Of a DNA stretch of 64,000 nt, positions 4,165-64,000 are shown piece by piece. The position numbers and the translations under genes are program-made. The DNA is taken from the NCBI GenBank assembly GCA_951406725.2, contig OX597842.1, forward strand, positions 248,001-312,000, in the 5' to 3' direction. The notes below the pieces were generated by a model. The model saw nothing but the letters and a program-made list of their open reading frames with translations. It searched no databases and was not told where the DNA came from. Within the stretch, counting starts at the first letter, position 1. Every line of letters starts with the position of its first letter. Source of the DNA: Octopus vulgaris (lineage: Eukaryota).

Positions 4165-4195
<31 letters not shown>

Positions 4196-30163: not shown

Positions 30164-30589
30164 ACCCAAAATAAATATGTAAATACTGACACATATTCTG
30201 ACTATTCAAAATTGGATGAAAAAAATTACACCTGACTTTAATACTTTACAAAATCATATTCATTGCACAACATGGTCTTTATTGGCAGAATTTTACCAAT
30301 ATTTCCCAAAGAAAAACAAAATTTATATGTACGACAATATCTGCCCAGTTTGCCCAATGTTCCTCCAAATATTAAAAATGACATTCTCCACACAACGATT
30401 TCATGCTAAGTTTCGGCTAAGGAAGACTTATTAAACTCAATACAGGGCAAGTTTTATGTAGAAATATATGTTTACTTAATAGTTAGTTTGTCCATTTCTT
30501 GGTATTCTGGCACCAACATCAGATTTGAGGCTTGGATGTGTGTTGCGTCTGACCTCTCACCACATCTGGATACATCAGTTAAAGAAGTA

Positions 30590-30805
30590 GGGTGAGCTGG
30601 CAGAAACATTAGCACGCTGGGCGAAATGCATAGCCGTATTTCGTCTGCTGCTACGTTCTGAGTTCAAATTCCGCTGAGGTCGACTTTGCCTTTCATCCTT
30701 TAAAGGTCGATAAATTAAGTGCCAGTTACGCACTGGGGTCGATGTTATCAACTTAATCCGTTTGTCCCCTCTGTGTTTAGCCCCTTGTGGGCAATAAAGA
30801 AATAT
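30590..30805 (+). mobile_element. Full SINE family 2 copy ending about 175 bp upstream of the signal-peptide ATG
   Basis: GGTGAGCTGGCAGAAAC (A box-like)...GAGTTCAAATTCC (B box-like)...GGGCAATAAAGAAAT. Confidence 0.85.
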
Positions 30806-30979
30806 ATAGTATTTGAAATAGTTAAGAATAAGATCTCCACTGCCAGAGTCTCGACCATAAATCTATTAAAGAGTGACTGATGATATTGTGACTGTTTGTT
30901 TTTCTCAGCCTGACCAGCAGCGGACCCTGGGTTATAAGCTTTGTTATTTTGCAGCTTTTGAAACTTATTTTTTCAGATC

Positions 30980-31034
30980 ATGGGTATTTCGAACTTATTA
31001 AAGGTGCTCCTCCTTTTCTCTATAACATATTTCC
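30980..31034 (+). CDS. First coding exon: N-terminal signal peptide MGISNLLKVLLLFSITYF (+1 nt)
   Basis: tttttcag-ATC-ATG GGT ATT TCG AAC TTA TTA AAG GTG CTC CTC CTT TTC TCT ATA ACA TAT TTC C|gtaagt; Lys followed by a hydrophobic core; phase-1 donor matches the micro-exons. Confidence 0.8.
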
Positions 31035-34000
31035 GTAAGTTTTATTTTTTATTTTATTTCATTTTTTCCATAACTTATTTTTGTTAAGGCAAACTTACTC
31101 AAGTGCACAGAGGTCTGGAATTGGTCTCTCACATAAGGAGGATTTTCTTTGTTTGGACAGGGATTTTTCCAATTTTGTTTTTAGCAGAGCTTTAGAAATG
31201 ATGCATTTTATGGAAGAAAATTTTGGAACATTTTTGATTTTCCACCACAATCCAACTTATAAATTATCTACCTCATTAACAAATTATATACAGAACCTCA
31301 GGTCCCGAAACATTCCCTATATTCTACCCTGGTTAATTAACAGTGAGCTCTCACACCCACCCACCCCATACAACACTAATCTTGGCACTGTGTATGAGAA
31401 TCATCCACTATCTTTCAAAACCACAACTCCTATTTATTTAATAAATTTTCAGATGTAATCCTCTCATGTAAACACAGAACCTATTCCTTGTTTGCCTATT
31501 ATGTTAAATCTATGTAATCTATTTACTCATACATGTCTACATACCTCGGTACTTTGATGTGCAACTGACCCATCTTCATTTTTAAGATTTCCCCTTTGCT
31601 ACACAACTAGCATCTGTAACTGGACCTTTTCTCTCCTTTTAATACTCGCCTCTCCCATCTTCCACCTTTCCAATATCCCTTAGTTCTATAGTGCCACCAT
31701 CCCTAACTATTAACATCTATTGTCATACCCAACAATGACTACCCTTGAAAATACTTTTCCTCTCACACCTCCCACTCATCTCCCAATTTTCCACTTCCAC
31801 TTCTTTCAATACCCTGATCACCCCACCTCCATCTTCCTAATCTGGCTATCTCTTCTTACCCCCTCCTTGTGTCAACATACCCACATTGAGCTACTTACTT
31901 CCTCCCTCCTGGTTTTTGAATTAATCATTCATTATCTTGTAGTTTTGACATTTTGATGATGTGATTGTTTATTTTTAGACTGACATTGAAGGGTAGGTGT
32001 GAGAGGGTGGATGTGGCTAGTTCAAACATAAAACAGATATGGCTGTATTAATCCTTCAGCAATCAGGTTACTGTGAAATATAATGTTCTTTTATTCATAT
32101 TATTTTGAATTATATCATCTTAAAATCAAAAATTTTTGTTTCCATTTTTTACAGAATCGACAAATACAAATGATGATAATATCACCCAAAGTGGTAAGTG
32201 GATTAACAAACCTTTTCTCTCTTTTTAAACTAGACATTACCTTTTTATTTCTGTCTTCTATTTCTTTCTCTTAACTCATAACTTTTATCCAATCTTTTGA
32301 TTTTTGATTTCTTTTAATTTTTAATTTAAACTTTGAGAAAGGCTAAAGAGCCAAAAATGCACATCAGGGAATACATGGCAAACAGTGGTTTTCCACCAGG
32401 GTCATGATGGTTTGTGGGGGTCCATATAGGACTGACACCTTCAATTTTGCTATGGATCCAACAAGCCACAGCATTGTGGTGAACTGCATTCCATGCATTG
32501 GCAAGCTTCTATTGTTTCATGGCCTTCCTAACACCCAACACTTTACCTCATGCAGCGGCTGCTTTTCTTCATTGCACCACCACTCATTTGGTTACCATGT
32601 AGCTGCTATCATGACAGTCATTCTGAATAGGATTGTAGTTATGATGTTTATCATCATCAGTTGTGGCACCTGTGCCAGTGGCACGTAAGAAGCACCATCT
32701 GTACGTTGCCGATGACAGCATCGCCTTGACTGGCTTCCATGTCGGTGGCATGAACAAACCACCAACCGATCATGGCCGTTGCCAGCTTCCCCTGGCACAT
32801 AAAAAGTACCCACTACAGTCACGTGTGTTTCGCGTTCAGGAAAGGCATCCAGCTGTAGAAACACTGCCAGATCAGACTGGAGCCTGGTGCAGCCTCCTGG
32901 CTTCCCAGATCCCGGTCGATCCGTCCAACCAATGCAAGAATGGAAAATGGATGTTAAACGATGATGATGATGTTTCATGCAGAATTCATTCCTCCTTTTT
33001 AATGCCAACCATTTTACAGAGTACTTGGAGGCTTTTTTACATGGCACCAATACTAGGAGGTCGCCAATAACTATAAAGACAAAGGAAGTGGAAGGAAAAA
33101 GTCCCGACCAAAGAGCATAGCAGTGAGGTTGGTGGCTTTATACTAGGTGCTGAGAGGTTAAAATAAGTGGGGTGGGTGTAAGTGGAAAGTGACATGGTTT
33201 AATCAGGCGTACACCCATGTCAGCTGAAATCATGTCCCAATAAACATAAATCTCATTAAATTAAAACTCGTTAGTCTAAGTGTAATAAGATGTCTAATTC
33301 CTTTTGATGGTCTCTATTGCACATTTTCCCTTTTAATTTCCAAGGGCAAAAATATTGACCCTTTAGCATTCAGATTATTCAGTGAAATTTAATCCTTATT
33401 TATTCACATTGGTTTGAATTAATCATGGATTATCTCGTAGCTTTGAAATTTCATTGATGTGATGATGAATTTTTGGAATAACATTGTAGGGTAGGTGTGA
33501 GAGGGTGGATGTGGCTAGTTCAAACATAAAACAGATATGGCTGGATTAATCCTTTAGCAATCAGATTACTGTGAAATATAATGTTCTTTTATTCCAATTA
33601 TTTTGAATCATATCATCTTAAAATCAAAAATTTTTGTTTCCATTTTTTACAGATTTGATAAATATAAATGATGATAATATCACCCAAAGTGGTAAGTGGA
33701 TTAACAAACCATTTCTCTCCTAGACATTACCTTTTCAGTTCTGTCTTCTATTTCCTTCCCATAACTCATAAGTTTTAGCCAATCTTTTGATTTTTGATTT
33801 CTTTAAATTTTTAATTTAACCTTTGAGAAAGGCTAAAGAGCCAAAAATGCACATCAGGGAATGTACTGCAGCAGTGGTTTTCGACCGGGGTCATGATGGT
33901 TTGTGGAGGTCCATATAGGACTGACACCTTCAATTTTGCTATGGATCCAACACACCAGAGCATTGTGGTGAACTCCATTCCATGCATTGGCAAGGCTTCT

Positions 34001-37000
34001 ATTGCTTCATGGCTTTCCTAACACTCACCACTTTAGCACATGTAGTGGCTGCTTTTCTTCATTGCACCACCACTCATTTGGTTACCATGTAGCTGCTATT
34101 ATGACAGTCGTTCTGAATAGGATTGTGGTTATGATGTTTATCATCATCAGTTATGGCACCTGTGCCGGTTGCACGTAAAAAGCACCATCCGTACGTTGCT
34201 GATGCCAGCGCCGCCTTGACTGGCTTCCATGTCGGTGGCATGAAAAACCACCAACCGATCGTGGCCGTTGCCAGCCTCCCCTGGCACATAAAAAGTACCC
34301 ACTACAGTCACGTGTGTTTCACGTTTAGGGAAGGCATCCAGCTGTAGAAACACTGCCAGATCAGACTGGAGCCTGGTGCAGCCTCCTGGCTTCCCAGATC
34401 CCGGTCGATCCGTCCAACCAATGCAAGCATAGAAAACGGATGTTAAACGATGATGATGATGTTTCATGCAGAATTCATTCCTCCTTTTTAATGCCAACCA
34501 TTTTACAGAGTACTTGGAGGCTTTTTACATGGCACCAATACTAGGAGGTCGCCAATAACTATAAAGACAAAGGAAGCGGAAGGAAAAAGTCCCGACCGAA
34601 GAGCATAGCAGTGAGTGTGGTGGCTTTATACCAGGTGCTGAGAGGTTAAAATAAGTGGGGTGGGTGTAAGTGGAAAGTGACATGATTTAATCAGGCGTAC
34701 ACCCATGTCAGCTGAAATCATGTCCCAATAAACATAAATCTCATTAAATTAAAACTCGTTAGTCTAAGTGTGATAGGATGTCTAATTTCTTTTGATGGTC
34801 TCTATTGCACATTTTCCCTTTTAATTCCAACGGCAAAAATATTAACCCTTTAGCATTCAGATTATTCAGTGAAATTTAATCCTTATTTATTCACATTGGT
34901 TTGAATTAATCATGGATTATTTCGTAGCTTTGAGATTTCATTGATGTGATGATGAATTTTTGGAATAACATTGTAGGGTAGGTGTGGGAGGTTGGATGTG
35001 GCTAGTTCAAACATAAACAGATATGGCTGGTTTAATCCTTTAGCAATCAGATTACTGTGAAATATAATGTTCTTTTATTCACGTTTTTTTGAATAATATC
35101 ATCTTAAAATCAAAAATATTTGTTTCTATTTTTACAGATTTGGAAGATGAAAATGATGAAAATATCAGCGATAGTGGTAAGTGGATTAACAAACCGTTTC
35201 TCTCCTAGACATTACCTTTTCAGTTCTGTCTTCTATTTCTTTCCCTTAACTCATAAGTTTTAGCCAATCTTTTGATTTTCGATCTCTTTAAATTTTTAAT
35301 TTAATCTTTGAGAAAGGCTAAAGAGCCAAAAATGCACATCAGGGAATGTACTGCAGCAGTGGTTTTCGACCAGGGTCATGATGGTTTTTGGGGGTCCATA
35401 TAGGACTGACACCTTCAAGTTTGCTATGGATCCAACAAGCCACAGCATTGTGGTGAACTGCATTCCATGCATTGGCAAGGCTTCTATTGTTTCATGGCCT
35501 TCCTAACACCCAACACTTTACCTCATGCAGCGGCTGCTTTTCTTCATTGCACCATCACTTATTTGGTTACCATGTAGCTGCGATTATGACAGTCTTTCTG
35601 AATAGGATTGTTGTTATGATGTTTATCATCATCAGTAATGGCACCCAGTGCCGGTGGCACGTAAAAAGAACCATCCATACGTTGCCGATGACAGCATCGC
35701 CTTGACTGGCTTCCATGTCGGTGGCATGAACAAACCACCAACCGATCGTGGCCGTTGCCAGCTTCCCTGGCACATAAAAAGTACCCACTATAGTCACGTG
35801 TGTTTCGCGTTTAGGAAAGGCATCCAGCTGTAGAAACACAGCCAGATCAGACTGGAGCCTGGTGCAGCCTCCTGGCTTCCCAGATCCCGGTCGATCCGTC
35901 CAACCAATGCAAGCATGGAAAACGGATGTTAAACGATGATGATGATGTTTCATGCAGAATTCATTCCTCCGTTTTAATGCCAACCATTTTACAGATTACT
36001 TGGAGGCTTTTTTACATGGCACCAACACTAGTAGGTCGCCAATAACTATAAAGACAAAGGAAGAGGAAGGAAAAAGCCCCAACCGAAGAGCATAGCAGTG
36101 AGTGTGGTGGCTTTATACCAGGTGCTGAGAGGTTAAAATAAGTGGGGTGTTTGTAAGTGGAAAGTGACATGGTTTAATCAGGCGTACACCCATGTCTGAT
36201 GAAATCATGTCCCAATAAACATAAATCTCATTAAATTAAAACTTGTTAGTCTAAGCGTAATAAGATGTCTAATTTCTTTTGATGGTCTCTATTGCACATT
36301 TTCCCTTTTAATTTCCAAGAGCAAAAATATTAACCTTTAGCAATCAGATTATTCAGTGAAATGTAATCCTTATTTATTCACATTGGTTTGAATTAATCAT
36401 GGATTATTTCGTAGCTTTGAGATTTCATTGATGTGATGATGAATTTTTGGAATAACATTGTAGGGTAGGTGTGGGAGGTTGGATGTGGCTAGTTCAAACA
36501 TAAACAGATATGGCTGGTTTAATCCTTTAGCAATCAGATTACTATGAAATATAATGTTCTTTTATTCACGTTTTTTTGAATAATATCATCTTAAAATCAA
36601 AAATATTTGTTTCTATTTTTACAGATTTGGAAGATGAAAATGATGAAAGTATCACCGATAGTGGTAAGTGGATTAACAAACCGTTTCTCTCCTAGACATT
36701 ACCTTTTCAGTTCTGTCTTCTATTTCTTTCCTTAACTCATAAGTTTTAGCCAATCTTTTGATTTTCGATCTCTTTAAATTTTTAATTTAATCTTTGAGAA
36801 AGGCTAAAGAGCCAAAAATGCACATCAGGGAATGTACTGCAGCAGTGGTTTTCGACCGGGGTCATGATGGTTTTTGGGGTCCATATAGGACTGACACCTT
36901 CAAGTTTGCTATGGATCCAACAAGCCACAGCATTGTGGTGAACTGCATTCCATGCATTGGCAAGGCTTCTATTGTTTCATGGCCTTCCTAACACCCAACA

Positions 37001-40000
37001 CTTTACCACATGTCGTGGCTGCTTTTCTTCATTGCACCATCACTTATTTGGTTACCATGTAGCTGCGATTATGACAGTCTTTCTGAATAGGATTGTTGTT
37101 ATGATGTTTATCATCATCAGTAATGGCACCTGTGCCGGTGGCACGTAAAAAGAACCATCCGTACGTTGCCGATGACAGCATCGCCTTGACTGGCTTCCAT
37201 GTCGGTGGCATGAACAAACCACCAACCGATCGTGGCCGTTGCCAGCTTCCCCTGGCACATAAAAAGTACCCACTATAGTCACGTGTGTTTCGCGTTTAGG
37301 AAAGGCATCCAGCTGTAGAAACACTGCCAGATCAGACTGGAGCCTGGTGCAGCCTCCTGGCTTCCCAGATCCCGGTCGATCCGTCCAACCAATGCAAGCA
37401 TGGAAAACGGATGTTAAACGATGATGATGATGTTTCATGCAGAATTCATTCCTCCGTTTTAATGCCAACCATTTTACAGATTACTTGGAGGCTTTTTTAC
37501 ATGGCACCAACACTAGTAGGTCGCCAATAACTATAAAGACAAAGGAAGAGGAAGGAAAAAGCCCCAACCGAAGAGCATAGCAGTGAGTGTGGTGGCTTTA
37601 TACCAGGTGCTGAGAGGTTAAAATAAGTGGGGTGTTTGTAAGTGGAAAGTGACATGGTTTAATCAGGCGTACACCCATGTCTGATGAAATCATGTCCCAA
37701 TAAACATAAATCTCATTAAATTAAAACTCGTTAGTCTAAGTGTAATAAGATGTCTAATTTCTTTTGATGGTCTCTATTGCACATTTTCCCTTTTAATTTC
37801 CAAGAGCAAAAATATTAACCCTTTAGCAATCAGATTATTCAGTGAAATTTAATCCTTATTTATTCACATTGGTTTGAATTAATCATGGATTATTTCGTAG
37901 CTTTGAGATTTCATTGATGTGATGATGAATTTTTGGAATAACATTGTAGGGTAGGTGTGGGAGGTTGGATGTGGCTAGTTCAAACATAAACAGATATGGC
38001 TGGTTTAATCCTTTAGCAATCAGATTACTGTGAAATATAATGTTCTTTTATTCACGTTTTTTGAATAATATCATCTTAAAATCAAAAATATTTGTTTCTA
38101 TTTTTACAGATTTGGAAGATGAAAATGATGAAAGTATCACCGATAGTGGTAAGTGGATTAACAAACCGTTTCTCTCCTAGACATTACCTTTTCAGTTCTG
38201 TCTTCTATTTCTTTCCCTTAACTCATAAGTTTTAGCCAATCTTTTGATTTTCGATCTCTTTAAATTTTTAATTTAATCTTTGAGAAAGGCTAAAGAGCCA
38301 AAAATGCACATCAGGGAATGTACTGCAGCAGTGGTTTTCGACCGGGGTCATGATGGTTTTTGGGGGTCCATATAGGACTGACACCTTCAAGTTTGCTATG
38401 GATCCAACAAGCCACAGCATTGTGGTGAACTGCATTCCATGCATTGGCAAGGCTTCTATTGTTTCATGGCCTTCCTAACACCCAACACTTTACCTCATGC
38501 AGCGGCTGCTTTTCTTCATTGCACCATCACTTATTTGGTTACAATGTAGCTGCGATTATGACAGTCTTTCTGAATAGGATTGTTGTTATGATGTTTATCA
38601 TCATCAGTAATGGCACCTGTGCCGGTGGCACGTAAAAAGAACCATCCGTACGTTGCCGATGACAGCATCGCCTTGACTGGCTTCCATGTCGGTGGCATGA
38701 ACAAACCACCAACCGATCGTGGCCGTTGCCAGCTTCCCCTGGAACATAAAAAGTACCCACTATAGTCACGTGTGTTTCGCGTTTAGGAAAGGCATCCAGC
38801 TGTAGAAACACTGCCAGATCAGACTGGAGCCTGGTGCAGCCTCCTGGCTTCCCAGATCCCGGTCGATCCGTCCAACCAATGCAAGCATGGAAAACGGATG
38901 TTAAACGATGATGATGATGTTTCATGCAGAATTCATTCCTCCGTTTTAATGCCAACCATTTTACAGATTACTTGGAGGCTTTTTTACATGGCACCAACAC
39001 TAGTAGGTCGCCAATAACTATAAAGACAAAGGAAGAGGAAGGAAAAAGCCCCAACCGAAGAGCATAGCAGTGAGTGTGGTGGCTTTATACCAGGTGCTGA
39101 GAGGTTAAAATAAGTGGGGTGTTTGTAAGTGGAAAGTGACATGGTTTAATCAGGCGTACACCCATGTCTGATGAAATCATGTCCCAATAAACATAAATCT
39201 CATTAAATTAAAACTCGTTAGTCTAAGTGTAATAAGATGTCTAATTCCTTTTGATGGTCTCTATTGCACATTTTCCCTTTTAATTTCCAAGGGCAAAAAT
39301 ATTGACCCTTTAGCATTCAGATTATTCAGTGAAATTTAATCCTTATTTATTCACATTGGTTTGAATTAATCATGGATTATCTCGTAGCTTTGAAATTTCA
39401 TTGATGTGATGATGAATTTTTGGAATAACATTGTAGGGTAGGTGTGAGAGGGTGGATGTGGCTAGTTCAAACATAAAACAGATATGGCTGGATTAATCCT
39501 TTAGCAATCAGATTACTGTGAAATATAATGTTCTTTTATTCCAATTATTTTGAATCATATCATCTTAAAATCAAAAATTTTTGTTTCCATTTTTTACAGA
39601 TTTGATAAATATAAATGATGATAATATCACCCAAAGTGGTAAGTGGATTAACAAACCATTTCTCTCCTAGACATTACCTTTTCAGTTCTGTCTTCTATTT
39701 CCTTCCCATAACTCATAAGTTTTAGCCAATCTTTTGATTTTTGATTTCTTTAAATTTTTAATTTAACCTTTGAGAAAGGCTAAAGAGCCAAAAATGCACA
39801 TCAGGGAATGTACTGCAGCAGTGGTTTTCGACCGGGGTCATGATGGTTTGTGGAGGTCCATATAGGACTGACACCTTCAATTTTGCTATGGATCCAACAC
39901 ACCAGAGCATTGTGGTGAACTCCATTCCATGCATTGGCAAGGCTTCTATTGCTTCATGGCTTTCCTAACACTCACCACTTTAGCACATGTAGTGGCTGCT

Positions 40001-52000: not shown

Positions 52001-55000
52001 TCATCATCAGTTATGGCACCTGTGCCGGTTGCACGTAAAAAGCACCATCCGTACGTTGCTGATGCCAGCGCCGCCTTGACCGGCTTCCATGTCGGTGGCA
52101 TGAAAACGACCAACCGATCGTGGCCGTTGCCAGCCTCCCCTGGCACATAAAAAGTACCCACTACAGTCACATGTGTTTCACGTTTAGGAAAGGCATCCAG
52201 CTGTAGAAACACTGCCAGATCAGACTGGAGCCTGGTGCAGCCTCCTGGCTTCCCAGATCCCGGTCGATCCGTCCAACCAATGCAAGCATAGAAAACGGAT
52301 GTTAAACGATGATGATGATGTTTCATGCAGAATTCATTCCTCCTTTTTAATGCCAACCATTTTACAGAGTACTTGGAGGCTTTTTTACATGGCACCAATA
52401 CTAGGAGGTCGCCAATAACTATAAAGACAAAGGAAGCGGAAGGAAAAATCCCGACCGAAGAGCATAGCAGTGAGTGTGGTGGCTTTATACCAGGTGCTGA
52501 GAGGTTAAAATAAGTGGGGTGGGTGTAAGTGGAAAGTGACATGGTTTAATCAGGCATACACCCATGTCTGATGAAATCATGTCCCAATAAACATAAATCT
52601 CATTAAATTAAAACTCGTTAGTCTAAGTGTAATAAGATGTCTAATTTCTTTTGATGGTCTCTATTACACATTTTCCCTTTTAATTTCCAAGGGCAAAAAA
52701 AATTAACCCTTTAGCATTCAGATAATTCAGTGAAATGTAATCCTTATTTATTCAAATTGGTTTGAATTAATGATGGATTATCTCGTAGCTTTGAAATTTC
52801 AAAGATGTGATGATGAATTTTTGGAATAACATTGTAGGGTAGGTGTGAGAGGGTGGATGTGGCTAGTTCAAACATAAGACAGATATGGCTGGTTTAATCC
52901 TTCAGCAATCAGGTTACTGTGAAATATAATGTTCTTTTCTTCATATTATTTTGAATTATATCATCTTAAAATCAAAAATTTTTGTTTCCATTTTTTACAG
53001 AATCGACAATTACAAATGATGATAATGTCCACCAAAGTCGTAAGTGGATTAACAAACCTTTTCTCTCTTTTTAAACTAGACATTACCTTTTTATTTCTGT
53101 CTTCTATTTCTTTCCCTTAACTCATAACTTTTATCCAATCTTTTGATTTTTGATTTCTTTAAATTTTTAATTTAACCTTTGAGAAAGGCCAAAGAGCCAA
53201 AAATGCACATCAGGGAATGTACTGCAGCAGTGGTTTTCGACCAGGGTCATGATGGTTTGTGGAGGTCCATATAGGACTGACACCTTCAATTTTGATATGG
53301 ATCCAACAAGCCACAGCATTGTGGTGAACTCCATTCCATGCATTGGCAAGGCTTCTATTGCTTCATGGCCTTCCTAACTCTCACCACTTTAGCACATGTA
53401 GTGGCTGCTTTTCTTCATTGCACCATCACTCATTTGGTTACCATGTAGCTGCTATTATGACAGTCGTTCTGAATAGGATTGTGGTTATGATGTTTGTCAT
53501 CATCAGTTGTGGCACCTGTGCAGGTGGCACGTAAAAAGAACCACCCGTACGTTGCCGATGACAGCGCCGCCTTGACTGGCTTCCATGTCGGTGGCATGAA
53601 AAAACCACCAACCGATCGTGGCCGTTGCCAGCCTCCTCTGGCACAAAAAAAGTACCCACTACAGGCACGTGTGTTTCACGTTTAGGAAAGGCATCCAGCT
53701 GTAGAAACACTGCCAGATCAGACTGGAGCCTGGTGCAGCCTCCTGGCTTCCCAGATCCCGGTCGATCCGTCCAACCAATGCAAGCACAGAAAACGGATGT
53801 TAAACGATGATGATGATGTTTCATGCAGAATTCATTCCTCCTTTTTAATGCCAACCATTTTACAGAGTACTTGGAGGCTTTTGTACGTGGCACCAATACT
53901 AGGAGGTCGCCAATAACTATAAAGACAAAGGAAGCGGAAGGAAAAAGTCCCGACCGAAGAGCATAGCAGTGAGGTTGGTGGCTTTATACCAGGTGCTGAG
54001 AGGTTAAAATAAGTGGGGTGGGTGTAAGTGGAAAGTGACATGATTTAATCAGGCGTACACCCATGTCTGATGAAATCATGTCCCAATAAACATAAATCTC
54101 ATTAAATTAAAACCTCGTTAGTCTAAGTGTAGTAAGATGTCTAATTTCTTTTGATGGTCTCTATTACACATTTTCACTTTTAATTTCCAAGGGCAAAAAT
54201 ACTGACCCTTTAGCATTCAGACAATTCAGTGAAATGTAATCCTTATTTATTCACATTCGTTTGAATTAATCATGGATTATCTCGTAGCTTTGAGATTTCA
54301 AAGATGTGATGATGAATTTTGGAATAACATTGTAGGGTAGGTGTGAGAGGGTGGATGTGGCTAGTTCAAACATAAAACAGATATGGCTGGTTTAATCCTT
54401 TAGCAATCAGATTACTGTGAAATATAATGTTCTTTTATTCATATTATTTTGAATCATATCATCTTAAATCAAAAATTTTTGTTTCCATTTTTTACAGATT
54501 TGATAAATATAAATGATGATAATATCACCCAAAGTGGTAAGTGGATTAACAAACCTTTTCTCTCCTAGACATTACCTTTTCAGTTCTGTCTTCTATTTCC
54601 TTCCCATAACTCATAAGTTTTAGCCAATCTTTTGATTTTTGATTTCTTTAAATTTTTAATTTAAACTTTGAGAAAGGCTAAAGAGCCAAAAATGCACATC
54701 AGGGAATGTACTGCAGCAGTGGTTTTCGACCAGGGTCATGATGGTTTGTGGAGGTCCATATAGGACTGACACGTTCAATTTTGATATGGATCCAACAAGC
54801 CACAGCATTGTGGTGAACTCCATTCCATGCATTGGCAAGGCTTCTATTGCTTCATGGCCTTCCTAACACTCACCACTTTAGCACATGTAGTGGCTGCTTT
54901 TCTTCATTGCACCACCACTCATTTAGTTACCATGTAGCTGCTATTATGACAGTCGTTCTGAATAGGATTGTGGTTATGATGTTTATCATCATCAGTTATG

Positions 55001-58000
55001 GCACCTGTGCCGGTTGCATGTAAAAAGCACCATCCATACGTTGCTGATGCAAGCGTCGCCTTGACTGGCTTCCATGTCGGTGGCATGAAAAAACCACCAA
55101 CCGATCGTGGCCGTTGCCAGCCTCCTCTGGCACATAAAAAGTACCCACTACAGGCACGTGTATTTCACGTTTAGGAAAGGCATCCAGCTGTAGAAACACT
55201 GCCAGATCAGACTAGAGCCTGGTGCAGCCTCCTGGCTTCCCAGATCCCGGTCGATCCGTCCAACCAATGCAAGCATAGAAAACAGATGTTAAACGATGAT
55301 GATGATGTTTCATGCAGAATTCATTCCTCCTTTTTAATGCCAACCATTTTACAGAGTACTTGGAGGCTTTTTTACATGGCACCAATACTAGGAGGTCGCC
55401 AATAACTATAAAGACAAAGGAAGTGGAAGGAAAAAGTCCCGACCAAAGAGCATAGCAGTGAGGTTGGTGGCTTTATACTAGGTGCTGAGAGGTTAAAATA
55501 AGTGGGGTGGGTGTAAGTGGAAAGTGACATGGTTTAATCAGGCGTACACCCATGTCAGCTGAAATCATGTCCCAATAAACATAAATCTCATTAAATTAAA
55601 ACTCGTTAGTCTAAGTGTAATAAGATGTCTAATTCCTTTTGATGGTCTCTATTGCACATTTTCCCTTTTAATTTCCAAGGGCAAAAATATTGACCCTTTA
55701 GCATTCAGATTATTCAGTGAAATTTAATCCTTATTTATTCACATTGGTTTGAATTAATCATGGATTATCTCGTAGCTTTGAAATTTCATTGATGTGATGA
55801 TGAATTTTTGGAATAACATTGTAGGGTAGGTGTGAGAGGGTGGATGTGGCTAGTTCAAACATAAAACAGATATGGCTGGATTAATCCTTTAGCAATCAGA
55901 TTACTGTGAAATATAATGTTCTTTTATTCCAATTATTTTGAATCATATCATCTTAAAATCAAAAATTTTTGTTTCCATTTTTTACAGATTTGATAAATAT
56001 AAATGATGATAATATCACCCAAAGTGGTAAGTGGATTAACAAACCATTTCTCTCCTAGACATTACCTTTTCAGTTCTGTCTTCTATTTCCTTCCCATAAC
56101 TCATAAGTTTTAGCCAATCTTTTGATTTTTGATTTCTTTAAATTTTTAATTTAACCTTTGAGAAAGGCTAAAGAGCCAAAAATGCACATCAGGGAATGTA
56201 CTGCAGCAGTGGTTTTCGACCGGGGTCATGATGGTTTGTGGAGGTCCATATAGGACTGACACCTTCAATTTTGCTATGGATCCAACACACCAGAGCATTG
56301 TGGTGAACTCCATTCCATGCATTGGCAAGGCTTCTATTGCTTCATGGCTTTCCTAACACTCACCACTTTAGCACATGTAGTGGCTGCTTTTCTTCATTGC
56401 ACCACCACTCATTTGGTTACCATGTAGCTGCTATTATGACAGTCGTTCTGAATAGGATTGTGGTTATGATGTTTATCATCATCAGTTATGGCACCTGTGC
56501 CGGTTGCACGTAAAAAGCACCATCCGTACGTTGCTGATGCCAGCGCCGCCTTGACTGGCTTCCATGTCGGTGGCATGAAAACCACCAACCGATCGTGGCC
56601 GTTGCCAGCCTCCCTGGCACATAAAAAGTACCCACTACAGTCACGTGTGTTTCACGTTTAGGGAAGGCATCCAGCTGTAGAAACACTGCCAGATCAGACT
56701 GGAGCCTGGTGCAGCCTCCTGGCTTCCCAGATCCCGGTCGATCCGTCCAACCAATGCAAGCATAGAAAACGGATGTTAAACGATGATGATGATGTTTCAT
56801 GCAGAATTCATTCCTCCTTTTTAATGCCAACCATTTTACAGAGTACTTGGAGGCTTTTTTACATGGCACCAATACTAGGAGGTCGCCAATAACTATAAAG
56901 ACAAAGGAAGCGGAAGGAAAAAGTCCCGACCGAAGAGCATAGCAGTGAGTGTGGTGGCTTTATACCAGGTGCTGAGAGGTTAAAATAAGTGGGGTGGGTG
57001 TAAGTGGAAAGTGACATGATTTAATCAGGCGTACACCCATGTCAGCTGAAATCATGTCCCAATAAACATAAATCTCATTAAATTAAAACTCGTTAGTCTA
57101 AGTGTGATAGGATGTCTAATTTCTTTTGATGGTCTCTATTGCACATTTTCCCTTTTAATTCCAACGGCAAAAATATTAACCCTTTAGCATTCAGATTATT
57201 CAGTGAAATTTAATCCTTATTTATTCACATTGGTTTGAATTAATCATGGATTATTTCGTAGCTTTGAGATTTCATTGATGTGATGATGAATTTTTGGAAT
57301 AACATTGTAGGGTAGGTGTGGGAGGTTGGATGTGGCTAGTTCAAACATAAACAGATATGGCTGGTTTAATCCTTTAGCAATCAGATTACTGTGAAATATA
57401 ATGTTCTTTTATTCACGTTTTTTTGAATAATATCATCTTAAAATCAAAAATATTTGTTTCTATTTTTACAGATTTGGAAGATGAAAATGATGAAAATATC
57501 AGCGATAGTGGTAAGTGGATTAACAAACCGTTTCTCTCCTAGACATTACCTTTTCAGTTCTGTCTTCTATTTCTTTCCCTTAACTCATAAGTTTTAGCCA
57601 ATCTTTTGATTTTCGATCTCTTTAAATTTTTAATTTAATCTTTGAGAAAGGCTAAAGAGCCAAAAATGCACATCAGGGAATGTACTGCAGCAGTGGTTTT
57701 CGACCAGGGTCATGATGGTTTTTGGGGGTCCATATAGGACTGACACCTTCAAGTTTGCTATGGATCCAACAAGCCACAGCATTGTGGTGAACTGCATTCC
57801 ATGCATTGGCAAGGCTTCTATTGTTTCATGGCCTTCCTAACACCCAACACTTTACCTCATGCAGCGGCTGCTTTTCTTCATTGCACCATCACTTATTTGG
57901 TTACCATGTAGCTGCGATTATGACAGTCTTTCTGAATAGGATTGTTGTTATGATGTTTATCATCATCAGTAATGGCACCTGTGCCGGTGGCACGTAAAAA

Positions 58001-61000
58001 GAACCATCCATACGTTGCCGATGACAGCATCGCCTTGACTGGCTTCCATGTCGGTGGCATGAACAAACCACCAACCGATCGTGGCCGTTGCCAGCTTCCC
58101 TGGCACATAAAAAGTACCCACTATAGTCACGTGTGTTTCGCGTTTAGGAAAGGCATCCAGCTGTAGAAACACAGCCAGATCAGACTGGAGCCTGGTGCAG
58201 CCTCCTGGCTTCCCAGATCCCGGTCGATCCGTCCAACCAATGCAAGCATGGAAAACGGATGTTAAACGATGATGATGATGTTTCATGCAGAATTCATTCC
58301 TCCGTTTTAATGCCAACCATTTTACAGATTACTTGGAGGCTTTTTTACATGGCACCAACACTAGTAGGTCGCCAATAACTATAAAGACAAAGGAAGAGGA
58401 AGGAAAAAGCCCCAACCGAAGAGCATAGCAGTGAGTGTGGTGGCTTTATACCAGGTGCTGAGAGGTTAAAATAAGTGGGGTGTTTGTAAGTGGAAAGTGA
58501 CATGGTTTAATCAGGCGTACACCCATGTCTGATGAAATCATGTCCCAATAAACATAAATCTCATTAAATTAAAACTTGTTAGTCTAAGCGTAATAAGATG
58601 TCTAATTTCTTTTGATGGTCTCTATTGCACATTTTCCCTTTTAATTTCCAAGAGCAAAAATATTAACCTTTAGCAATCAGATTATTCAGTGAAATGTAAT
58701 CCTTATTTATTCACATTGGTTTGAATTAATCATGGATTATTTCGTAGCTTTGAGATTTCATTGATGTGATGATGAATTTTTGGAATAACATTGTAGGGTA
58801 GGTGTGGGAGGTTGGATGTGGCTAGTTCAAACATAAACAGATATGGCTGGTTTAATCCTTTAGCAATCAGATTACTATGAAATATAATGTTCTTTTATTC
58901 ACGTTTTTTTGAATAATATCATCTTAAAATCAAAAATATTTGTTTCTATTTTTACAGATTTGGAAGATGAAAATGATGAAAGTATCACCGATAGTGGTAA
59001 GTGGATTAACAAACCGTTTCTCTCCTAGACATTACCTTTTCAGTTCTGTCTTCTATTTCTTTCCCTTAACTCATAAGTTTTAGCCAATCTTTTGATTTTC
59101 GATCTCTTTAAATTTTTAATTTAATCTTTGAGAAAGGCTAAAGAGCCAAAAATGCACATCAGGGAATGTACTGCAGCAGTGGTTTTCGACCGGGGTCATG
59201 ATGGTTTTTGGGGGTCCATATAGGACTGACACCTTCAAGTTTGCTATGGATCCAACAAGCCACAGCATTGTGGTGAACTGCATTCCATGCATTGGCAAGG
59301 CTTCTATTGTTTCATGGCCTTCCTAACACCCAACACTTTACCACATGTCGTGGCTGCTTTTCTTCATTGCACCATCACTTATTTGGTTACCATGTAGCTG
59401 CGATTATGACAGTCTTTCTGAATAGGATTGTTGTTATGATGTTTATCATCATCAGTAATGGCACCTGTGCCGGTGGCACGTAAAAAGAACCATCCGTACG
59501 TTGCCGATGACAGCATCGCCTTGACTGGCTTCCATGTCGGTGGCATGAACAAACCACCAACCGATCGTGGCCGTTGCCAGCTTCCCCTGGCACATAAAAA
59601 GTACCCACTATAGTCACGTGTGTTTCGCGTTTAGGAAAGGCATCCAGCTGTAGAAACACTGCCAGATCAGACTGGAGCCTGGTGCAGCCTCCTGGCTTCC
59701 CAGATCCCGGTCGATCCGTCCAACCAATGCAAGCATGGAAAACGGATGTTAAACGATGATGATGATGTTTCATGCAGAATTCATTCCTCCGTTTTAATGC
59801 CAACCATTTTACAGATTACTTGGAGGCTTTTTTACATGGCACCAACACTAGTAGGTCGCCAATAACTATAAAGACAAAGGAAGAGGAAGGAAAAAGCCCC
59901 AACCGAAGAGCATAGCAGTGAGTGTGGTGGCTTTATACCAGGTGCTGAGAGGTTAAAATAAGTGGGGTGTTTGTAAGTGGAAAGTGACATGGTTTAATCA
60001 GGCGTACACCCATGTCTGATGAAATCATGTCCCAATAAACATAAATCTCATTAAATTAAAACTCGTTAGTCTAAGTGTAATAAGATGTCTAATTTCTTTT
60101 GATGGTCTCTATTGCACATTTTCCCTTTTAATTTCCAAGAGCAAAAATATTAACCCTTTAGCAATCAGATTATTCAGTGAAATTTAATCCTTATTTATTC
60201 ACATTGGTTTGAATTAATCATGGATTATTTCGTAGCTTTGAGATTTCATTGATGTGATGATGAATTTTTGGAATAACATTGTAGGGTAGGTGTGGGAGGT
60301 TGGATGTGGCTAGTTCAAACATAAACAGATATGGCTGGTTTAATCCTTTAGCAATCAGATTACTGTGAAATATAATGTTCTTTTATTCACGTTTTTTTGA
60401 ATAATATCATCTTAAAATCAAAAATATTTGTTTCTATTTTTACAGATTTGGAAGATGAAAATGATGAAAGTATCACCGATAGTGGTAAGTGGATTAACAA
60501 ACCGTTTCTCTCCTAGACATTACCTTTTCAGTTCTGTCTTCTATTTCTTTCCCTTAACTCATAAGTTTTAGCCAATCTTTTGATTTTCGATCTCTTTAAA
60601 TTTTTAATTTAATCTTTGAGAAAGGCTAAAGAGCCAAAAATGCACATCAGGGAATGTACTGCAGCAGTGGTTTTCGACCGGGGTCATGATGGTTTTTGGG
60701 GGTCCATATAGGACTGACACCTTCAAGTTTGCTATGGATCCAACAAGCCACAGCATTGTGGTGAACTGCATTCCATGCATTGGCAAGGCTTCTATTGTTT
60801 CATGGCCTTCCTAACACCCAACACTTTACCTCATGCAGCGGCTGCTTTTCTTCATTGCACCATCACTTATTTGGTTACAATGTAGCTGCGATTATGACAG
60901 TCTTTCTGAATAGGATTGTTGTTATGATGTTTATCATCATCAGTAATGGCACCTGTGCCGGTGGCACGTAAAAAGAACCATCCGTACGTTGCCGATGACA

Positions 61001-63463
61001 GCATCGCCTTGACTGGCTTCCATGTCGGTGGCATGAACAAACCACCAACCGATCGTGGCCGTTGCCAGCTTCCCCCTGGAACATAAAAAGTACCCACTAT
61101 AGTCACGTGTGTTTCGCGTTTAGGAAAGGCATCCAGCTGTAGAAACACTGCCAGATCAGACTGGAGCCTGGTGCAGCCTCCTGGCTTCCCAGATCCCGGT
61201 CGATCCGTCCAACCAATGCAAGCATGGAAAACGGATGTTAAACGATGATGATGATGTTTCATGCAGAATTCATTCCTCCGTTTTAATGCCAACCATTTTA
61301 CAGATTACTTGGAGGCTTTTTTACATGGCACCAACACTAGTAGGTCGCCAATAACTATAAAGACAAAGGAAGAGGAAGGAAAAGCCCCAACCGAAGAGCA
61401 TAGCAGTGAGTGTGGTGGCTTTATACCAGGTGCTGAGAGGTTAAAATAAGTGGGGTGTTTGTAAGTGGAAAGTGACATGGTTTAATCAGGCGTACACCCA
61501 TGTCTGATGAAATCATGTCCCAATAAACATAAATCTCATTAAATTAAAACTCGTTAGTCTAAGTGTAATAAGATGTCTAATTCCTTTTGATGGTCTCTAT
61601 TGCACATTTTCCCTTTTAATTTCCAAGGGCAAAAATATTGACCCTTTAGCATTCAGATTATTCAGTGAAATTTAATCCTTATTTATTCACATTGGTTTGA
61701 ATTAATCATGGATTATCTCGTAGCTTTGAAATTTCATTGATGTGATGATGAATTTTTGGAATAACATTGTAGGGTAGGTGTGAGAGGGTGGATGTGGCTA
61801 GTTCAAACATAAAACAGATATGGCTGGATTAATCCTTTAGCAATCAGATTACTGTGAAATATAATGTTCTTTTATTCCAATTATTTTGAATCATATCATC
61901 TTAAAATCAAAAATTTTTGTTTCCATTTTTTACAGATTTGATAAATATAAATGATGATAATATCACCCAAAGTGGTAAGTGGATTAACAAACCATTTCTC
62001 TCCTAGACATTACCTTTTCAGTTCTGTCTTCTATTTCCTTCCCATAACTCATAAGTTTTAGCCAATCTTTTGATTTTTGATTTCTTTAAATTTTTAATTT
62101 AACCTTTGAGAAAGGCTAAAGAGCCAAAAATGCACATCAGGGAATGTACTGCAGCAGTGGTTTTCGACCGGGGTCATGATGGTTTGTGGAGGTCCATATA
62201 GGACTGACACCTTCAATTTTGCTATGGATCCAACACACCAGAGCATTGTGGTGAACTCCATTCCATGCATTGGCAAGGCTTCTATTGCTTCATGGCTTTC
62301 CTAACACTCACCACTTTAGCACATGTAGTGGCTGCTTTTCTTCATTGCACCACCACTCATTTGGTTACCATGTAGCTGCTATTATGACAGTCGTTCTGAA
62401 TAGGATTGTGGTTATGATGTTTATCATCATCAGTTATGGCACCTGTGCCGGTTGCACGTAAAAAGCACCATCCGTACGTTGCTGATGCCAGCGCCGCCTT
62501 GACCGGCTTCCATGTCGGTGGCATGAAAAAACGACCAACCGATCGTGGCCGTTGCCAGCCTCCCCTGGCACATAAAAAGTACCCACTACAGTCACATGTG
62601 TTTCACGTTTAGGAAAGGCATCCAGCTGTAGAAACACTGCCAGATCAGACTGGAGCCTGGTGCAGCCTCCTGGCTTCCCAGATCCCGGTCGATCCGTCCA
62701 ACCAATGCAAGCATAGAAAACGGATGTTAAACGATGATGATGATGTTTCATGCAGAATTCATTCCTCCTTTTTAATGCCAACCATTTTACAGAGTACTTG
62801 GAGGCTTTTTTACATGGCACCAATACTAGGAGGTCGCCAATAACTATAAAGACAAAGGAAGCGGAAGGAAAAATCCCGACCGAAGAGCATAGCAGTGAGT
62901 GTGGTGGCTTTATACCAGGTGCTGAGAGGTTAAAATAAGTGGGGTGGGTGTAAGTGGAAAGTGACATGGTTTAATCAGGCATACACCCATGTCTGATGAA
63001 ATCATGTCCCAATAAACATAAATCTCATTAAATTAAAACTCGTTAGTCTAAGTGTAATAAGATGTCTAATTTCTTTTGATGGTCTCTATTACACATTTTC
63101 CCTTTTAATTTCCAAGGGCAAAAAAATTAACCCTTTAGCATTCAGATAATTCAGTGAAATGTAATCCTTATTTATTCAAATTGGTTTGAATTAATGATGG
63201 ATTATCTCGTAGCTTTGAAATTTCAAAGATGTGATGATGAATTTTTGGAATAACATTGTAGGGTAGGTGTGAGAGGGTGGATGTGGCTAGTTCAAACATA
63301 AGACAGATATGGCTGGTTTAATCCTTCAGCAATCAGGTTACTGTGAAATATAATGTTCTTTTCTTCATATTATTTTGAATTATATCATCTTAAAATCAAA
63401 AATTTTTGTTTCCATTTTTTACAGAATCGACAATTACAAATGATGATAATGTCCACCAAAGTC
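30980..63463 (+). CDS. Putative multi-exon gene for a secreted, acidic, N-glycosylated tandem-repeat protein: signal-peptide exon plus at least 22 39-nt micro-exons; 3' end lies beyond the window
   Basis: Seen: ATG exon ends in phase 1 (C|gtaagt); each array unit has polypyrimidine+cag|39 nt|gtaagt, open in the same phase. Spliced product: MGISNLLKVLLLFSITYF-QSTNTNDDNITQS-DLININDDNITQS-DLEDENDENISDS-DLEDENDESITDS-DLEDENDESITDS-DLININDDNITQS-ESTITNDDNVHQS-HLININDDNITQS-... (18+22x13=304 aa in window, no stop). Expression is inferred, not shown. Confidence 0.8.
32155..32193 (+). CDS. micro-exon 1, variant A: (Q)STNTNDDNITQS
   Basis: ttttttacag|AATCGACAAATACAAATGATGATAATATCACCCAAAGTG|gtaagt. 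Confidence 0.8.
33653..33691 (+). CDS. micro-exon 2, variant B: DLININDDNITQS
   Basis: ttttttacag|ATTTGATAAATATAAATGATGATAATATCACCCAAAGTG|gtaagt. Confidence 0.75.
35138..35176 (+). CDS. micro-exon 3, variant C: DLEDENDENISDS
   Basis: tttttacag|ATTTGGAAGATGAAAATGATGAAAATATCAGCGATAGTG|gtaagt. Confidence 0.75.
36625..36663 (+). CDS. micro-exon 4, variant D: DLEDENDESITDS
   Basis: tttttacag|ATTTGGAAGATGAAAATGATGAAAGTATCACCGATAGTG|gtaagt. Confidence 0.75.
38110..38148 (+). CDS. micro-exon 5, variant D
   Basis: cag|39 nt|gtaagt, same as exon 4. Confidence 0.75.
39600..39638 (+). CDS. micro-exon 6, variant B
   Basis: cag|39 nt|gtaagt, same as exon 2. Confidence 0.75.
41089..41127 (+). CDS. micro-exon 7, variant A': ESTITNDDNVHQS
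   Basis: cag|AATCGACAATTACAAATGATGATAATGTCCACCAAAGTC|gtaagt. Confidence 0.75.
42586..42624 (+). CDS. micro-exon 8, variant B (first residue H if joined to exon 7)
   Basis: cag|39 nt|gtaagt. Confidence 0.75.
44076..44114 (+). CDS. micro-exon 9, variant B
   Basis: cag|39 nt|gtaagt. Confidence 0.75.
45561..45599 (+). CDS. micro-exon 10, variant C
   Basis: cag|39 nt|gtaagt. Confidence 0.75.
47048..47086 (+). CDS. micro-exon 11, variant D
   Basis: cag|39 nt|gtaagt. Confidence 0.75.
48536..48574 (+). CDS. micro-exon 12, variant D
   Basis: cag|39 nt|gtaagt. Confidence 0.75.
50023..50061 (+). CDS. micro-exon 13, variant D
   Basis: cag|39 nt|gtaagt. Confidence 0.75.
51513..51551 (+). CDS. micro-exon 14, variant B
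   Basis: cag|39 nt|gtaagt. Confidence 0.75.
53001..53039 (+). CDS. micro-exon 15, variant A'
   Basis: cag|39 nt|gtaagt, same as exon 7. Confidence 0.75.
54498..54536 (+). CDS. micro-exon 16, variant B
   Basis: cag|39 nt|gtaagt. Confidence 0.75.
55988..56026 (+). CDS. micro-exon 17, variant B
   Basis: cag|39 nt|gtaagt. Confidence 0.75.
57472..57510 (+). CDS. micro-exon 18, variant C
   Basis: cag|39 nt|gtaagt. Confidence 0.75.
58958..58996 (+). CDS. micro-exon 19, variant D
   Basis: cag|39 nt|gtaagt. Confidence 0.75.
60446..60484 (+). CDS. micro-exon 20, variant D
   Basis: cag|39 nt|gtaagt. Confidence 0.75.
61936..61974 (+). CDS. micro-exon 21, variant B
   Basis: cag|39 nt|gtaagt. Confidence 0.75.
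63425..63463 (+). CDS. micro-exon 22, variant A'
   Basis: cag|39 nt|gtaagt. Confidence 0.75.
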
Positions 63464-64000
63464 GTAAGTGGATTAACAAACCTTTTCTCTCTTTTTAAAC
63501 TAGACATTACCTTTTTATTTCTGTCTTCTATTTCTTTCCCTTAACTCATAACTTTTATCCAATCTTTTGATTTTTGATTTCTTTAAATTTTTAATTTAAC
63601 CTTTGAGAAAGGCCAAAGAGCCAAAAATGCACATCAGGGAATGTACTGCAGCAGTGGTTTTCGACCAGGGTCATGATGGTTTGTGGAGGTCCATATAGGA
63701 CTGACACCTTCAATTTTGATATGGATCCAACAAGCCACAGCATTGTGGTGAACTCCATTCCATGCATTGGCAAGGCTTCTATTGCTTCATGGCCTTCCTA
63801 ACTCTCACCACTTTAGCACATGTAGTGGCTGCTTTTCTTCATTGCACCATCACTCATTTGGTTACCATGTAGCTGCTATTATGACAGTCGTTCTGAATAG
63901 GATTGTGGTTATGATGTTTGTCATCATCAGTTGTGGCACCTGTGCAGGTGGCACGTAAAAAGAACCACCCGTACGTTGCCGATGACAGCGCCGCCTTGAC

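Follow-up and report, generated by a model that had tools for sequence, protein, structure and literature searches.

Could a stretch of octopus DNA that looks like a satellite belong to a protein-coding gene? The window analyzed here is 64 kb long; bare coordinates are positions within it, and those marked G000:C29 are positions on the contig past its end. The apparent satellite, ~42 kb in all, is one 39-nt exon amplified 28-fold in tandem. Twenty-two phase-1 copies lie inside the window and 28 in the whole array, which reaches G000:C29:320399. The original prediction of at least 22 symmetric 39-nt exons with a strong acceptor and a gtaagt donor was confirmed: the window exons, spaced 1,484 to 1,498 nt apart, are each exactly 39 nt, with a pyrimidine-rich CAG acceptor before and a GTAAGTG donor after. 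All 28 stand behind the exon that had been proposed to encode a signal-like peptide ~1.1 kb before the array and to end in phase 1. That exon was found as described, with 55 coding nt and a phase-1 donor at 31035. Its best 11-residue hydropathy is 2.28, and it is homologous to the N termini of annotated relatives, which supports a predicted signal peptide; 18 paralogous exons or remnants lie elsewhere on the contig.

A strict exon motif had 22 matches in 31000-64000 and none in 1-30900. Matches to a loose pattern at 54304 (plus strand, with a stop inside) and 22086 (minus strand) were unrelated to the array and were dropped. Because some strict symmetric micro-exon of 12 to 81 nt was contained in 6.2% of 2,000 shuffled units, and because the 28 copies descend from one unit, splice motifs alone are little proof. 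The evidence for a real exon therefore comes from homology and selection.

We compared divergence across units 2 to 27 (11 distinct), since the nonhomologous flanks of units 1 and 28 inflate intron variation; with those two units included, the exon was not extreme, 180 of 1,046 windows being equally variable. In these statistics, which take no account of gene conversion and draw on units that are not independent of one another, 22 of 39 exon columns varied among the 11 distinct units versus 210 of 1,426 intron columns (Fisher p = 4e-9). Pairwise divergence was 0.218 in the exon versus 0.052 in the intron, or about 4 times faster, and no 39-column intron window held more than 15 changes, against 26 in the exon. 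Nonsynonymous changes made up 22 of the 23 distinct changes in the exon (pN 0.25, pS 0.04). Taken by itself, the nonsynonymous-to-synonymous ratio was of borderline significance (p = 0.056). Splice-site invariance (p = 0.09) and the lack of stops (p = 0.65) did not reach significance. The Ig-like exons show the same pattern, dN exceeding dS in 27 of 28 pairs; between Ig 2 and Ig 4, dN was 0.099, dS was 0, and intron divergence was 0.004.

Read in series, the array would encode a strongly acidic 364-aa peptide with 116 D/E residues, 1 K, and 18 N-glycosylation sequons. Eight exon haplotypes occur in 13 distinct units. Aromatic residues are present only in exons 25 and 28, being absent from the other 26 copies; exon 28, which adjoins Ig 1, keeps them. 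Any subset of exons had been expected to be skippable in frame, and this held for the 22 window exons but not for the full array, in which 377 of 378 forward exon-to-exon joins are sense and a stop arises where exon 24 meets exon 27.

Table 1. Features of the array locus in the window and on the contig beyond it.
Feature	Position	Strand	Remark
Inverted remnant of conserved 77-nt upstream 5' exon	28215..28346	-	Acceptor and first ~31 nt
Signal-peptide exon	30977..31034	+	ATG at 30980, 18 codons + 1 nt
Upstream copy (X) of dispersed repeat	31918..32010	+	Source of 3' half of array junctions
39-nt exon 1	32155..32193	+	Type a
39-nt exon 2	33653..33691	+	Type L
39-nt exon 3	35138..35176	+	Acidic type E
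39-nt exon 4	36625..36663	+	Acidic type F
39-nt exon 5	38110..38148	+	Type F
39-nt exon 6	39600..39638	+	Type L
39-nt exon 7	41089..41127	+	Type S
39-nt exon 8	42586..42624	+	Type L
39-nt exon 9	44076..44114	+	Type L, second higher-order block starts
39-nt exon 10	45561..45599	+	Type E
39-nt exon 11	47048..47086	+	Type F
39-nt exon 12	48536..48574	+	Type F
39-nt exon 13	50023..50061	+	Type F
39-nt exon 14	51513..51551	+	Type L
39-nt exon 15	53001..53039	+	Type S
39-nt exon 16	54498..54536	+	Type L
39-nt exon 17	55988..56026	+	Type L, third higher-order block starts
39-nt exon 18	57472..57510	+	Type E
39-nt exon 19	58958..58996	+	Type F
39-nt exon 20	60446..60484	+	Type F
39-nt exon 21	61936..61974	+	Type L
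39-nt exon 22	63425..63463	+	Type S
Intron leaving window	63464..64000	+	
Array exons 23-28	G000:C29 starts 312922, 314406, 315896, 317385, 318870, 320361		
Ig-like exon 1	G000:C29 330280-330528		
Single 39-nt exon between Ig 1 and Ig 2	G000:C29 331979		
Ig 2 exon	G000:C29 334064-334312		
Second tandem gene copy, 5' exon	G000:C29 335764-335840		Intact
Second copy, signal exon	G000:C29 ~337775		
Second copy, 39-nt exon before Ig 3	G000:C29 338934		
Ig 3 exon (second copy)	G000:C29 342638		
Second copy, 39-nt exon before Ig 4	G000:C29 344352		
Ig 4 exon (second copy)	G000:C29 352629		
Anchor exon, sole one found	G000:C29 359558		19-residue hydropathy 2.02, short tail, stop

Terminal exons had been expected beyond the window, and the sequence there supplied them. 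Ig-like exons of 249 nt begin ~10 kb past the array, with a transmembrane exon further on; the locus holds four of the former and one of the latter, in phase. The frame is open from the ATG through Ig 1 (465 codons, 0 stops), and the gene models, which differ in path, encode 597 or 789 aa, with a cytoplasmic tail of about 10 residues at most. The first gene copy lacks its own anchor exon; its transcript would have to skip over the second signal exon. Among the matches listed in a comparison with paralogs, no terminal exon lay between the array and Ig 1, the next conserved exon being Ig-like. A tblastn search with three GPI-like tails, possibly insensitive, found no clear exon at the locus or in the given paralog stretches.

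By sequence comparison, the gene is a member of an expanded, fast-diversifying octopod family of predicted Ig-like cell-surface proteins. The Ig exon has 76 matches in all, 66 of them on this contig, and Ig 1 is 36 to 55% identical to relatives among the 25 matches listed. Examples are O. sinensis LOC115225115, LOC115225116, and LOC115225442 and Argonauta hians GAB1602345.1, all uncharacterized. The family plan is a signal peptide, n modules of a 13-aa exon plus an 82-aa Ig-like exon, and a membrane anchor, all in phase 1; the C terminus of most relatives is a transmembrane or GPI-like tail. Judged from sequence, the 39-nt exon normally is the putative linker and first β-strand, one per domain, and the 249-nt exon the rest of the domain. 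In 59 annotated relatives, many of which are isoforms of the same genes, inter-domain linkers have exactly 14 residues in 117 of 129 cases, 27 residues (two small exons) in 4, and 1 residue (none) in 4. Ig exons in the fetched genomic stretches have one small exon in front in 26 of 34 cases, several in 4 (2, 2, 3, and 28), and none or an unclear number in 4. The Pfam I-set match in P0010 begins within the small-exon peptide. P0065, derived from a 1,067-nt contig of a public run, has the signal, small exon, Ig, and anchor in a single frame; we infer that the contig is a relative's spliced transcript. The annotations of P0018 and P0021 place two small exons one after the other, and that of a three-exon paralog (P0013) uses only one of the three. 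That annotated relatives show the small exon doubled in some and absent in others makes some splicing variation plausible. The uncharacterized relatives share the signal, the modules, and the anchor with this gene but have a single small exon for each domain, or two or three at the most, and an acidic array of 28 exons occurs in none of them.

The named matches of an Ig-exon profile were octopods, one abalone, and bacterial repeats. The bacterial matches (4 of 20 looked up) were repeat proteins whose scores summed many weak stretches, and were set aside as chance. Literature searches found no description of this octopod family, and six family locus ids gave 0 matches; the main text of PMC9068888 does not contain "immunoglobulin," and its supplementary table of clade-specific arrays may bear on novelty.

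At the family level, the domain is an Ig β-sandwich. Pfam I-set scored above the cutoff in 3 of 10 relatives (P0002, P0003, and P0010), the Foldseek matches listed were titin, antibody, Dscam, and other Ig-type chains (best E value 5e-7, from a model with pLDDT 53), the language-model neighbors were V-set and Thy-1, and the C-strand tryptophan (W23) is present in at least 90% of 30 sequences. Ig 1 and Ig 2 of this locus had no Pfam match and no PDB sequence match; the best VIA Z at this locus was 3.8 (rmsd 2.7 over 64 residues), and, as the AlphaFold models are of low confidence (pLDDT 53.5 and 52.6), fold matches serve as support only. The canonical B-F disulfide was not seen, there being no conserved cysteine in the likely B strand (strand assignment inferred); a CxxxC pair at 32/36 accounts for the invariant cysteines. 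The sequences thus place the family as a putative atypical IgSF, like Alr.

How did one such exon become 28? The first small exon was tandemly duplicated by unequal crossover between dispersed-repeat copies 1.49 kb apart. The three array junctions inspected combine parts of the downstream and the upstream copy of the repeat as seen in single-exon paralogs, and each of the 27 best junction matches falls within the array. Duplication was followed by diversification into the 8 haplotypes and then by amplification of a 7- to 8-unit higher-order repeat to 28 copies. Acidic exon types were seen only in the array (20 of 20 scored candidates), and by-eye comparison with the single small exons of the family suggests that the array has shifted toward acidity relative to its ancestor.

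On balance, we favor the reading that the array gives a hypervariable Ig receptor an acidic N-terminal extension of variable length. Most copies would be spliced in series, now or until recently, with some skipping. In the product, the signal peptide would be followed by as many as 364 aa of disordered extension, by Ig domain 1, to which exon 28 adds the missing piece, and by further Ig domains and the membrane anchor. Being membrane distal, the extension would form a polyanionic, glycosylated shield or spacer before a recognition domain, and array copy number together with exon skipping would determine how long it is; the sequons suggest that it is probably sugar-coated. Diversifying selection points to a possible role in host-microbe, self/nonself, or cell-cell recognition. 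More tentatively, and with considerable doubt, we suggest an undescribed hypervariable octopod receptor family that assembles isoforms out of phase-1 modules and in which a domain-completing micro-exon has become an actively spliced 28-cassette array; through exon skipping and changes in copy number, the array would tune the length and charge of the shield or swap the first strand, in a self/nonself or neural receptor of a mollusc convergent on MEG and Dscam/Alr logic.

Four of 24 listed public runs (X1, X2, X4, and X6; contigs, taken as RNA by guess) were compared with 30500-42800. Matches were mostly to dispersed repeats, with only unspliced pieces on intron 1 and exon flanks and no exon splice joint among the 15 listed, beside which 269 more went unlisted; this outcome weighs neither for nor against splicing of the array. 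Weak, word-limited searches, covering Ig 1 alone and the local subfamily, found no database protein with the array or this locus's Ig 1.

The gene may now be silent, given its upstream 5' exon. This exon is near complete at 12 places in the family and survives here only as an inverted fragment whose remaining part and donor are missing, so the ancestral 5' structure is damaged. A recently disabled gene, in which the 8 variants arose under selection, a 5' rearrangement silenced the gene, and the most recent, 3-fold amplification of blocks was neutral macrosatellite growth, is a serious though rather unlikely account. It is consistent with the near identity of the blocks (0 to 1 difference per 1,000 between matching units), the absence of the array product from annotation, and damaged family neighbors (26-nt signal remnants and, in one paralog, an Ig exon reduced to 111 nt). 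Against it, the broken exon has its own acceptor and may be internal and dispensable, and frames and splice sites are intact in the signal exon, 28 small exons, four Ig exons, and anchor exon.

The same near identity would fit over-expansion of 10.4- to 11.9-kb blocks in the assembly, making the true array shorter. We consider this improbable: the blocks are unequal (7, 8, and 7 units) and carry small private differences, and the 13 distinct units and 8 haplotypes would still stand. Such an artifact is compatible with the favored extension reading.

More doubtful still is a Dscam-like mutually exclusive cassette, in which one small exon of 28 would give the first strand of Ig domain 1, yielding 8 variant receptors. 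The array does consist of variants of a domain-starting exon under diversifying selection, and in one paralog the small exon adjoining its domain also lacks the usual tyrosine (by eye), so tyrosine loss is compatible with one-of-many use. However, no upstream docking element was found: the longest reverse-complementary match between intron 1 and a unit intron is 12 nt (ungapped), a length reached in 10 of 100 shuffles. With introns of 1.45 kb and equal phases, neither steric nor frame-based exclusion applies, and the relatives with two small exons in series also argue against it. A repeat in the tested array intron is 77% complementary over 323 nt to an inverted copy ~3.2 kb past exon 28, but such downstream pairing would trim the array from its 3' end, not select one exon. 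The repeat and its inverted copy are a possible competing pairing.

A secreted protein of combinatorial micro-exons alone, as the original prediction proposed, is very improbable despite the signal exon, symmetric exons, near-universal sense joins, MEG-like high nonsynonymous rate, and a stop 29 codons into read-through of the Ig 1 donor that would yield a soluble form, because the small exon is an Ig first-strand exon, Ig-like and transmembrane exons lie downstream with no terminal exon listed before them, and relatives are mostly anchored.

Schistosoma MEGs combine a signal peptide with numerous small symmetric exons and long introns, and they show repeat-associated duplication and high dN/dS (PMC4350168, 10.1101/2023.06.21.545858). 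The array gene has these features in common with them, with 29 or 31 exons of 39 nt in the 597- or 789-aa model (~63% or 51% of coding length, in this gene only and not the family). It differs in that a single domain fragment has been copied in tandem together with its introns, and in that the copies lead into Ig-like and anchor exons in place of a secreted, anchor-free end; no sign of homology to MEGs was seen among the named profile matches. In Dscam, exons 4 and 6 each specify the N-terminal half of an Ig domain. Arthropod Dscam1 has tandem exon variants in an Ig-superfamily gene (PMC1397879). The Dscam variants are mutually exclusive; the octopus array has no upstream docking site that could be found, its exon encodes only 13 aa, and most copies have no aromatic residue. 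Hydractinia Alr proteins are encoded in a cluster, are divergent, cross the membrane once, and have one to three unusual Ig domains; some lack the canonical cysteine pair, and pseudogenes and splice variants also occur (PMC9546547). The octopus family is similar, being clustered, divergent, and single-pass with unusual Ig domains. We found no sequence link to Alr and no Fn3-like segment, and 0 of 8 relatives checked had an ITAM or ITIM; tails are short, unlike those of Alr.

The locus brings to light a large octopod family of Ig-like surface proteins under positive selection. Its database entries are only uncharacterized, and its members are candidates for cephalopod immune, self-recognition, or neural recognition receptors. 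It also preserves recoverable breakpoints at which a piece of a folded domain was amplified inside a macrosatellite and remodeled into an acidic low-complexity region, an exon array that repeat-masked annotation would miss. Should the gene prove silent, the array would be a curiosity, though the family would still merit study. Thy-1 and V-set clusters are the language-model neighbors of the single-domain relative P0065 (0.94), and some isoforms (P0034, P0043, and P0106, by eye) share a GPI-like tail with Thy-1/CD48-type V-set glycoproteins, a likeness without alignment or E-value support for homology. A squid Thy-1-like glycoprotein, reportedly the subject of a 1988 paper by Williams, Tse, and Gagnon to judge by its title, is a possible lead for the octopus family.

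The array is a real feature. The window corresponds to 248001-312000 of contig G000:C29. A pattern search recovered 22 exons of exactly 39 nt in it (window 32155-63463), about 1.49 kb apart, each preceded by a CAG acceptor with a pyrimidine-rich tract and followed by a GTAAGTG donor, as expected from the original prediction of at least 22 symmetric exons; the phase-matched signal exon that it placed upstream was likewise recovered. Six further exons in neighbouring stretches bring the total to 28, of 8 haplotypes, arranged as a first unit, three near-identical blocks (7, 8 and 7 units), then a 5-unit tail that has diverged further. The idea that any subset of exons could be skipped in frame held for 377 of the 378 forward joins within the 28-exon array, and one join gives a stop.

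Comparison of signal-exon paralogues (18 paralogues or remnants on contig C29; 19 of 40 scored rows including the exon itself, the other 21 matching an upstream repeat only) brought to light a conserved exon of 249 nt, phase 1/1, which lies about 10 kb past exon 28. Four such Ig-like exons (Ig1 to Ig4) and a transmembrane (anchor) exon follow the array. The reading frame is open from signal exon to anchor, and the predicted product would be 597 aa long should the first copy be joined to the anchor, or 789 aa should it include all four domains. Two accounts give symmetric exons, a signal peptide and high dN/dS as properties of Schistosoma micro-exon genes (PMC4350168, 10.1101/2023.06.21.545858), and in these the octopus locus is partly alike. 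The feature of a secreted protein with no other domain is not shared, as Ig-like and anchor exons follow the array.

Features of the locus and its surroundings (window or contig G000:C29 coordinates)
Feature	Position	Remark
ATG trinucleotide array	window 3315-5849	2.5 kb
107-bp unit x 29	window 13063-16170	
1.09-kb direct duplication	window 27132-28218 and 28819-29906	99% identity; flanks inverted 5' exon fragment
Inverted remnant of 77-nt 5' exon	window 28215-28346	what is left of the exon upstream of the array
Signal exon	window, ATG 30980	55 coding nt; phase matches small exons
3-kb segment	C29:324090-327100 (stretch L012)	between array and Ig1; in paralogs at 77-91% identity; probably a mobile element
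Ig1	C29:330280	first Ig-like exon after 28 small exons
26-nt signal-exon remnants (two)	C29:330836-330861 and 343194-343219 (approx.)	after Ig1 and Ig3; would shift frame if included; counterpart at 16.52 Mb intact, a signal exon of 49 nt
Small exon, then Ig2	Ig2 at C29:334064	after Ig1
Second copy: 5' exon, signal, small exon, Ig3, small exon, Ig4		after Ig2
85-bp tandem array	C29:356117-358539 (stretch L015)	intron before anchor exon; shared by two paralogs
Anchor exon	C29:359558	single, ends locus

With E up to 1, the genome gave 76 matches to Ig1 (80 scored), of which 66 lie on C29; no match contains an internal stop. The anchor exon had 18 matches. A profile of 30 Ig exons retrieved 25 uncharacterised Octopus proteins. 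Against 1.8 billion representatives it gave 42 matches, 10 already named Octopus, and the 20 looked up among the other 32 included 10 from Octopus, 2 from Argonauta, 1 abalone protein with I-set repeats and 4 bacterial. These matches point to an octopod as the source of the DNA. The relatives consist of a signal, n repeats of small exon plus Ig exon, and a transmembrane or GPI-like tail. Their linker has 14 residues in 117 of 129 cases, 27 in 4 and 1 in 4, but isoforms in these counts are not independent, and the annotation may have mixed close paralogues into chimeras. Across genomic stretches, one small exon precedes 26 of 34 Ig exons and several precede 4 (2, 2, 3 and 28).

Pfam I-set scored above cut-off in 3 of 10 relatives, one match beginning within the small-exon peptide. 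Foldseek on a low-confidence model returned Ig-type chains, and language-model neighbours were V-set and Thy-1 clusters; a single-exon structure model reached a Z of only 3.8, and Pfam and PDB sequence searches with the locus's own Ig domains gave no match. The domain keeps the Trp, and a CxxxC pair replaces the usual disulfide. We filed it as atypical Ig-superfamily and infer that the small exon encodes its first strand. A Thy-1-like glycoprotein of squid is a possible lead for comparison with the family; it is named in the title of a work cited by PMC2189447 and mentioned in PMC6497726. The array resembles Dscam arrays (PMC1397879) and the family the Hydractinia Alr cluster (PMC9546547), each short of that system's defining tests; PMC9068888 mentions unnamed clade-specific arrays, which are given in its supplement. 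Literature searches, with subscription journals mostly outside coverage, found no paper on the family.

Among 11 distinct units from units 2-27, divergence was 0.218 in exons and 0.052 in introns, and 22 of 39 exon columns varied versus 210 of 1426 intron columns (p 4e-9). The exon excess falls entirely at replacement sites: 22 of 23 distinct exon changes are non-synonymous (pN 0.25, pS 0.04). The N:S ratio by itself was borderline (p 0.056), neither splice-site intactness nor stop absence in the array was significant, and when non-homologous flanks were included the exon was not extreme. In the Ig exons, dN exceeded dS in 27 of 28 pairs, and introns were far more similar than exons. Since a neutral satellite is not expected to give such a pattern, we infer from the sequences that the array exons were being translated at the time their variants appeared. 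The acidic exon types were found only in the 28-exon array.

The gene might since have been silenced, which we consider unlikely. The family's 77-nt upstream exon has near-complete copies at 12 sites; what this gene has left of it is an inverted fragment, and the array was absent from the database proteins found with Ig1, the family profile and the local subfamily; but that exon has its own acceptor and may therefore be an internal one that the gene can do without. A check of array splice joints in sequencing-run contigs showed no spliced read among the joints listed, its output being mostly dispersed repeats. Mutually exclusive use of the array exons is more doubtful still, because no docking site was found upstream of the array and the annotation of relatives includes two consecutive small exons.

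The simplest reading is a disordered acidic extension with exon 28 completing Ig1. Spliced in series, the array computes to 364 aa with 116 D/E, 1 K, 18 sequons and 2 junction cysteines; aromatic residues are absent from 26 of the 28 copies and retained in exon 28. The product would be a glycosylated, polyanionic stretch before Ig1 and, being membrane-distal, would act as a shield or spacer and not as a stalk. Its length could vary by copy number and exon skipping. A repeat in the array intron tested is complementary to another copy that lies, inverted, 3.2 kb past exon 28, and pairing between them could, speculatively, loop out the 3' exons.

In single-exon paralogues of the subfamily, the small exon lies between two copies of a dispersed repeat that have diverged from each other, one about 240 nt before it and the other 0.8-1.25 kb after; the genome has 3456 candidate sites of this repeat. 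All three array junctions listed combine the 5' half of the downstream repeat with the 3' half of the upstream one. The best 27 of 41 hybrid-junction matches listed all lie inside the array, and the intron tree sets array units apart from two single-exon neighbours (100/99). Judged by these sequences, the array arose by unequal crossover, then block amplification. The three-exon case differs in unit length and breakpoint, so duplication of the small exon has occurred independently more than once.

Other small-exon duplications comprise three copies at C29:16521-16529 kb (stretch L022) and two each at 27.39 Mb (L066) and 27.43 Mb (L069); some subfamilies use a 57-nt version. The closest signal-exon paralog (98%; C29:16437161, minus strand, L017-L021) has one small exon; its Ig exon has been cut to 111 nt with the frame kept, its 5' exon is partly deleted, and its anchor exon is intact. 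Two anchor exons, inverted in orientation, occur at L061:6460-6610 (-) and L062:5750-5900 (+), and the search of that 20 kb showed no Ig exon. Database models P0024, P0070 and P0001 join family exons with histone-like or zinc-finger sequence and are probably annotation chimeras. A related gene (proteins P0011, P0012, P0055-P0059) carries a Thr-rich membrane-proximal repeat whose copy number varies among annotated isoforms. By signal- and anchor-exon counts, C29:19.75-20.33 Mb holds twelve family genes of 1-4 domains each, and at least one carries a pair of alternative signal exons separated by about 800 nt, in agreement with the isoform pairs of relatives.
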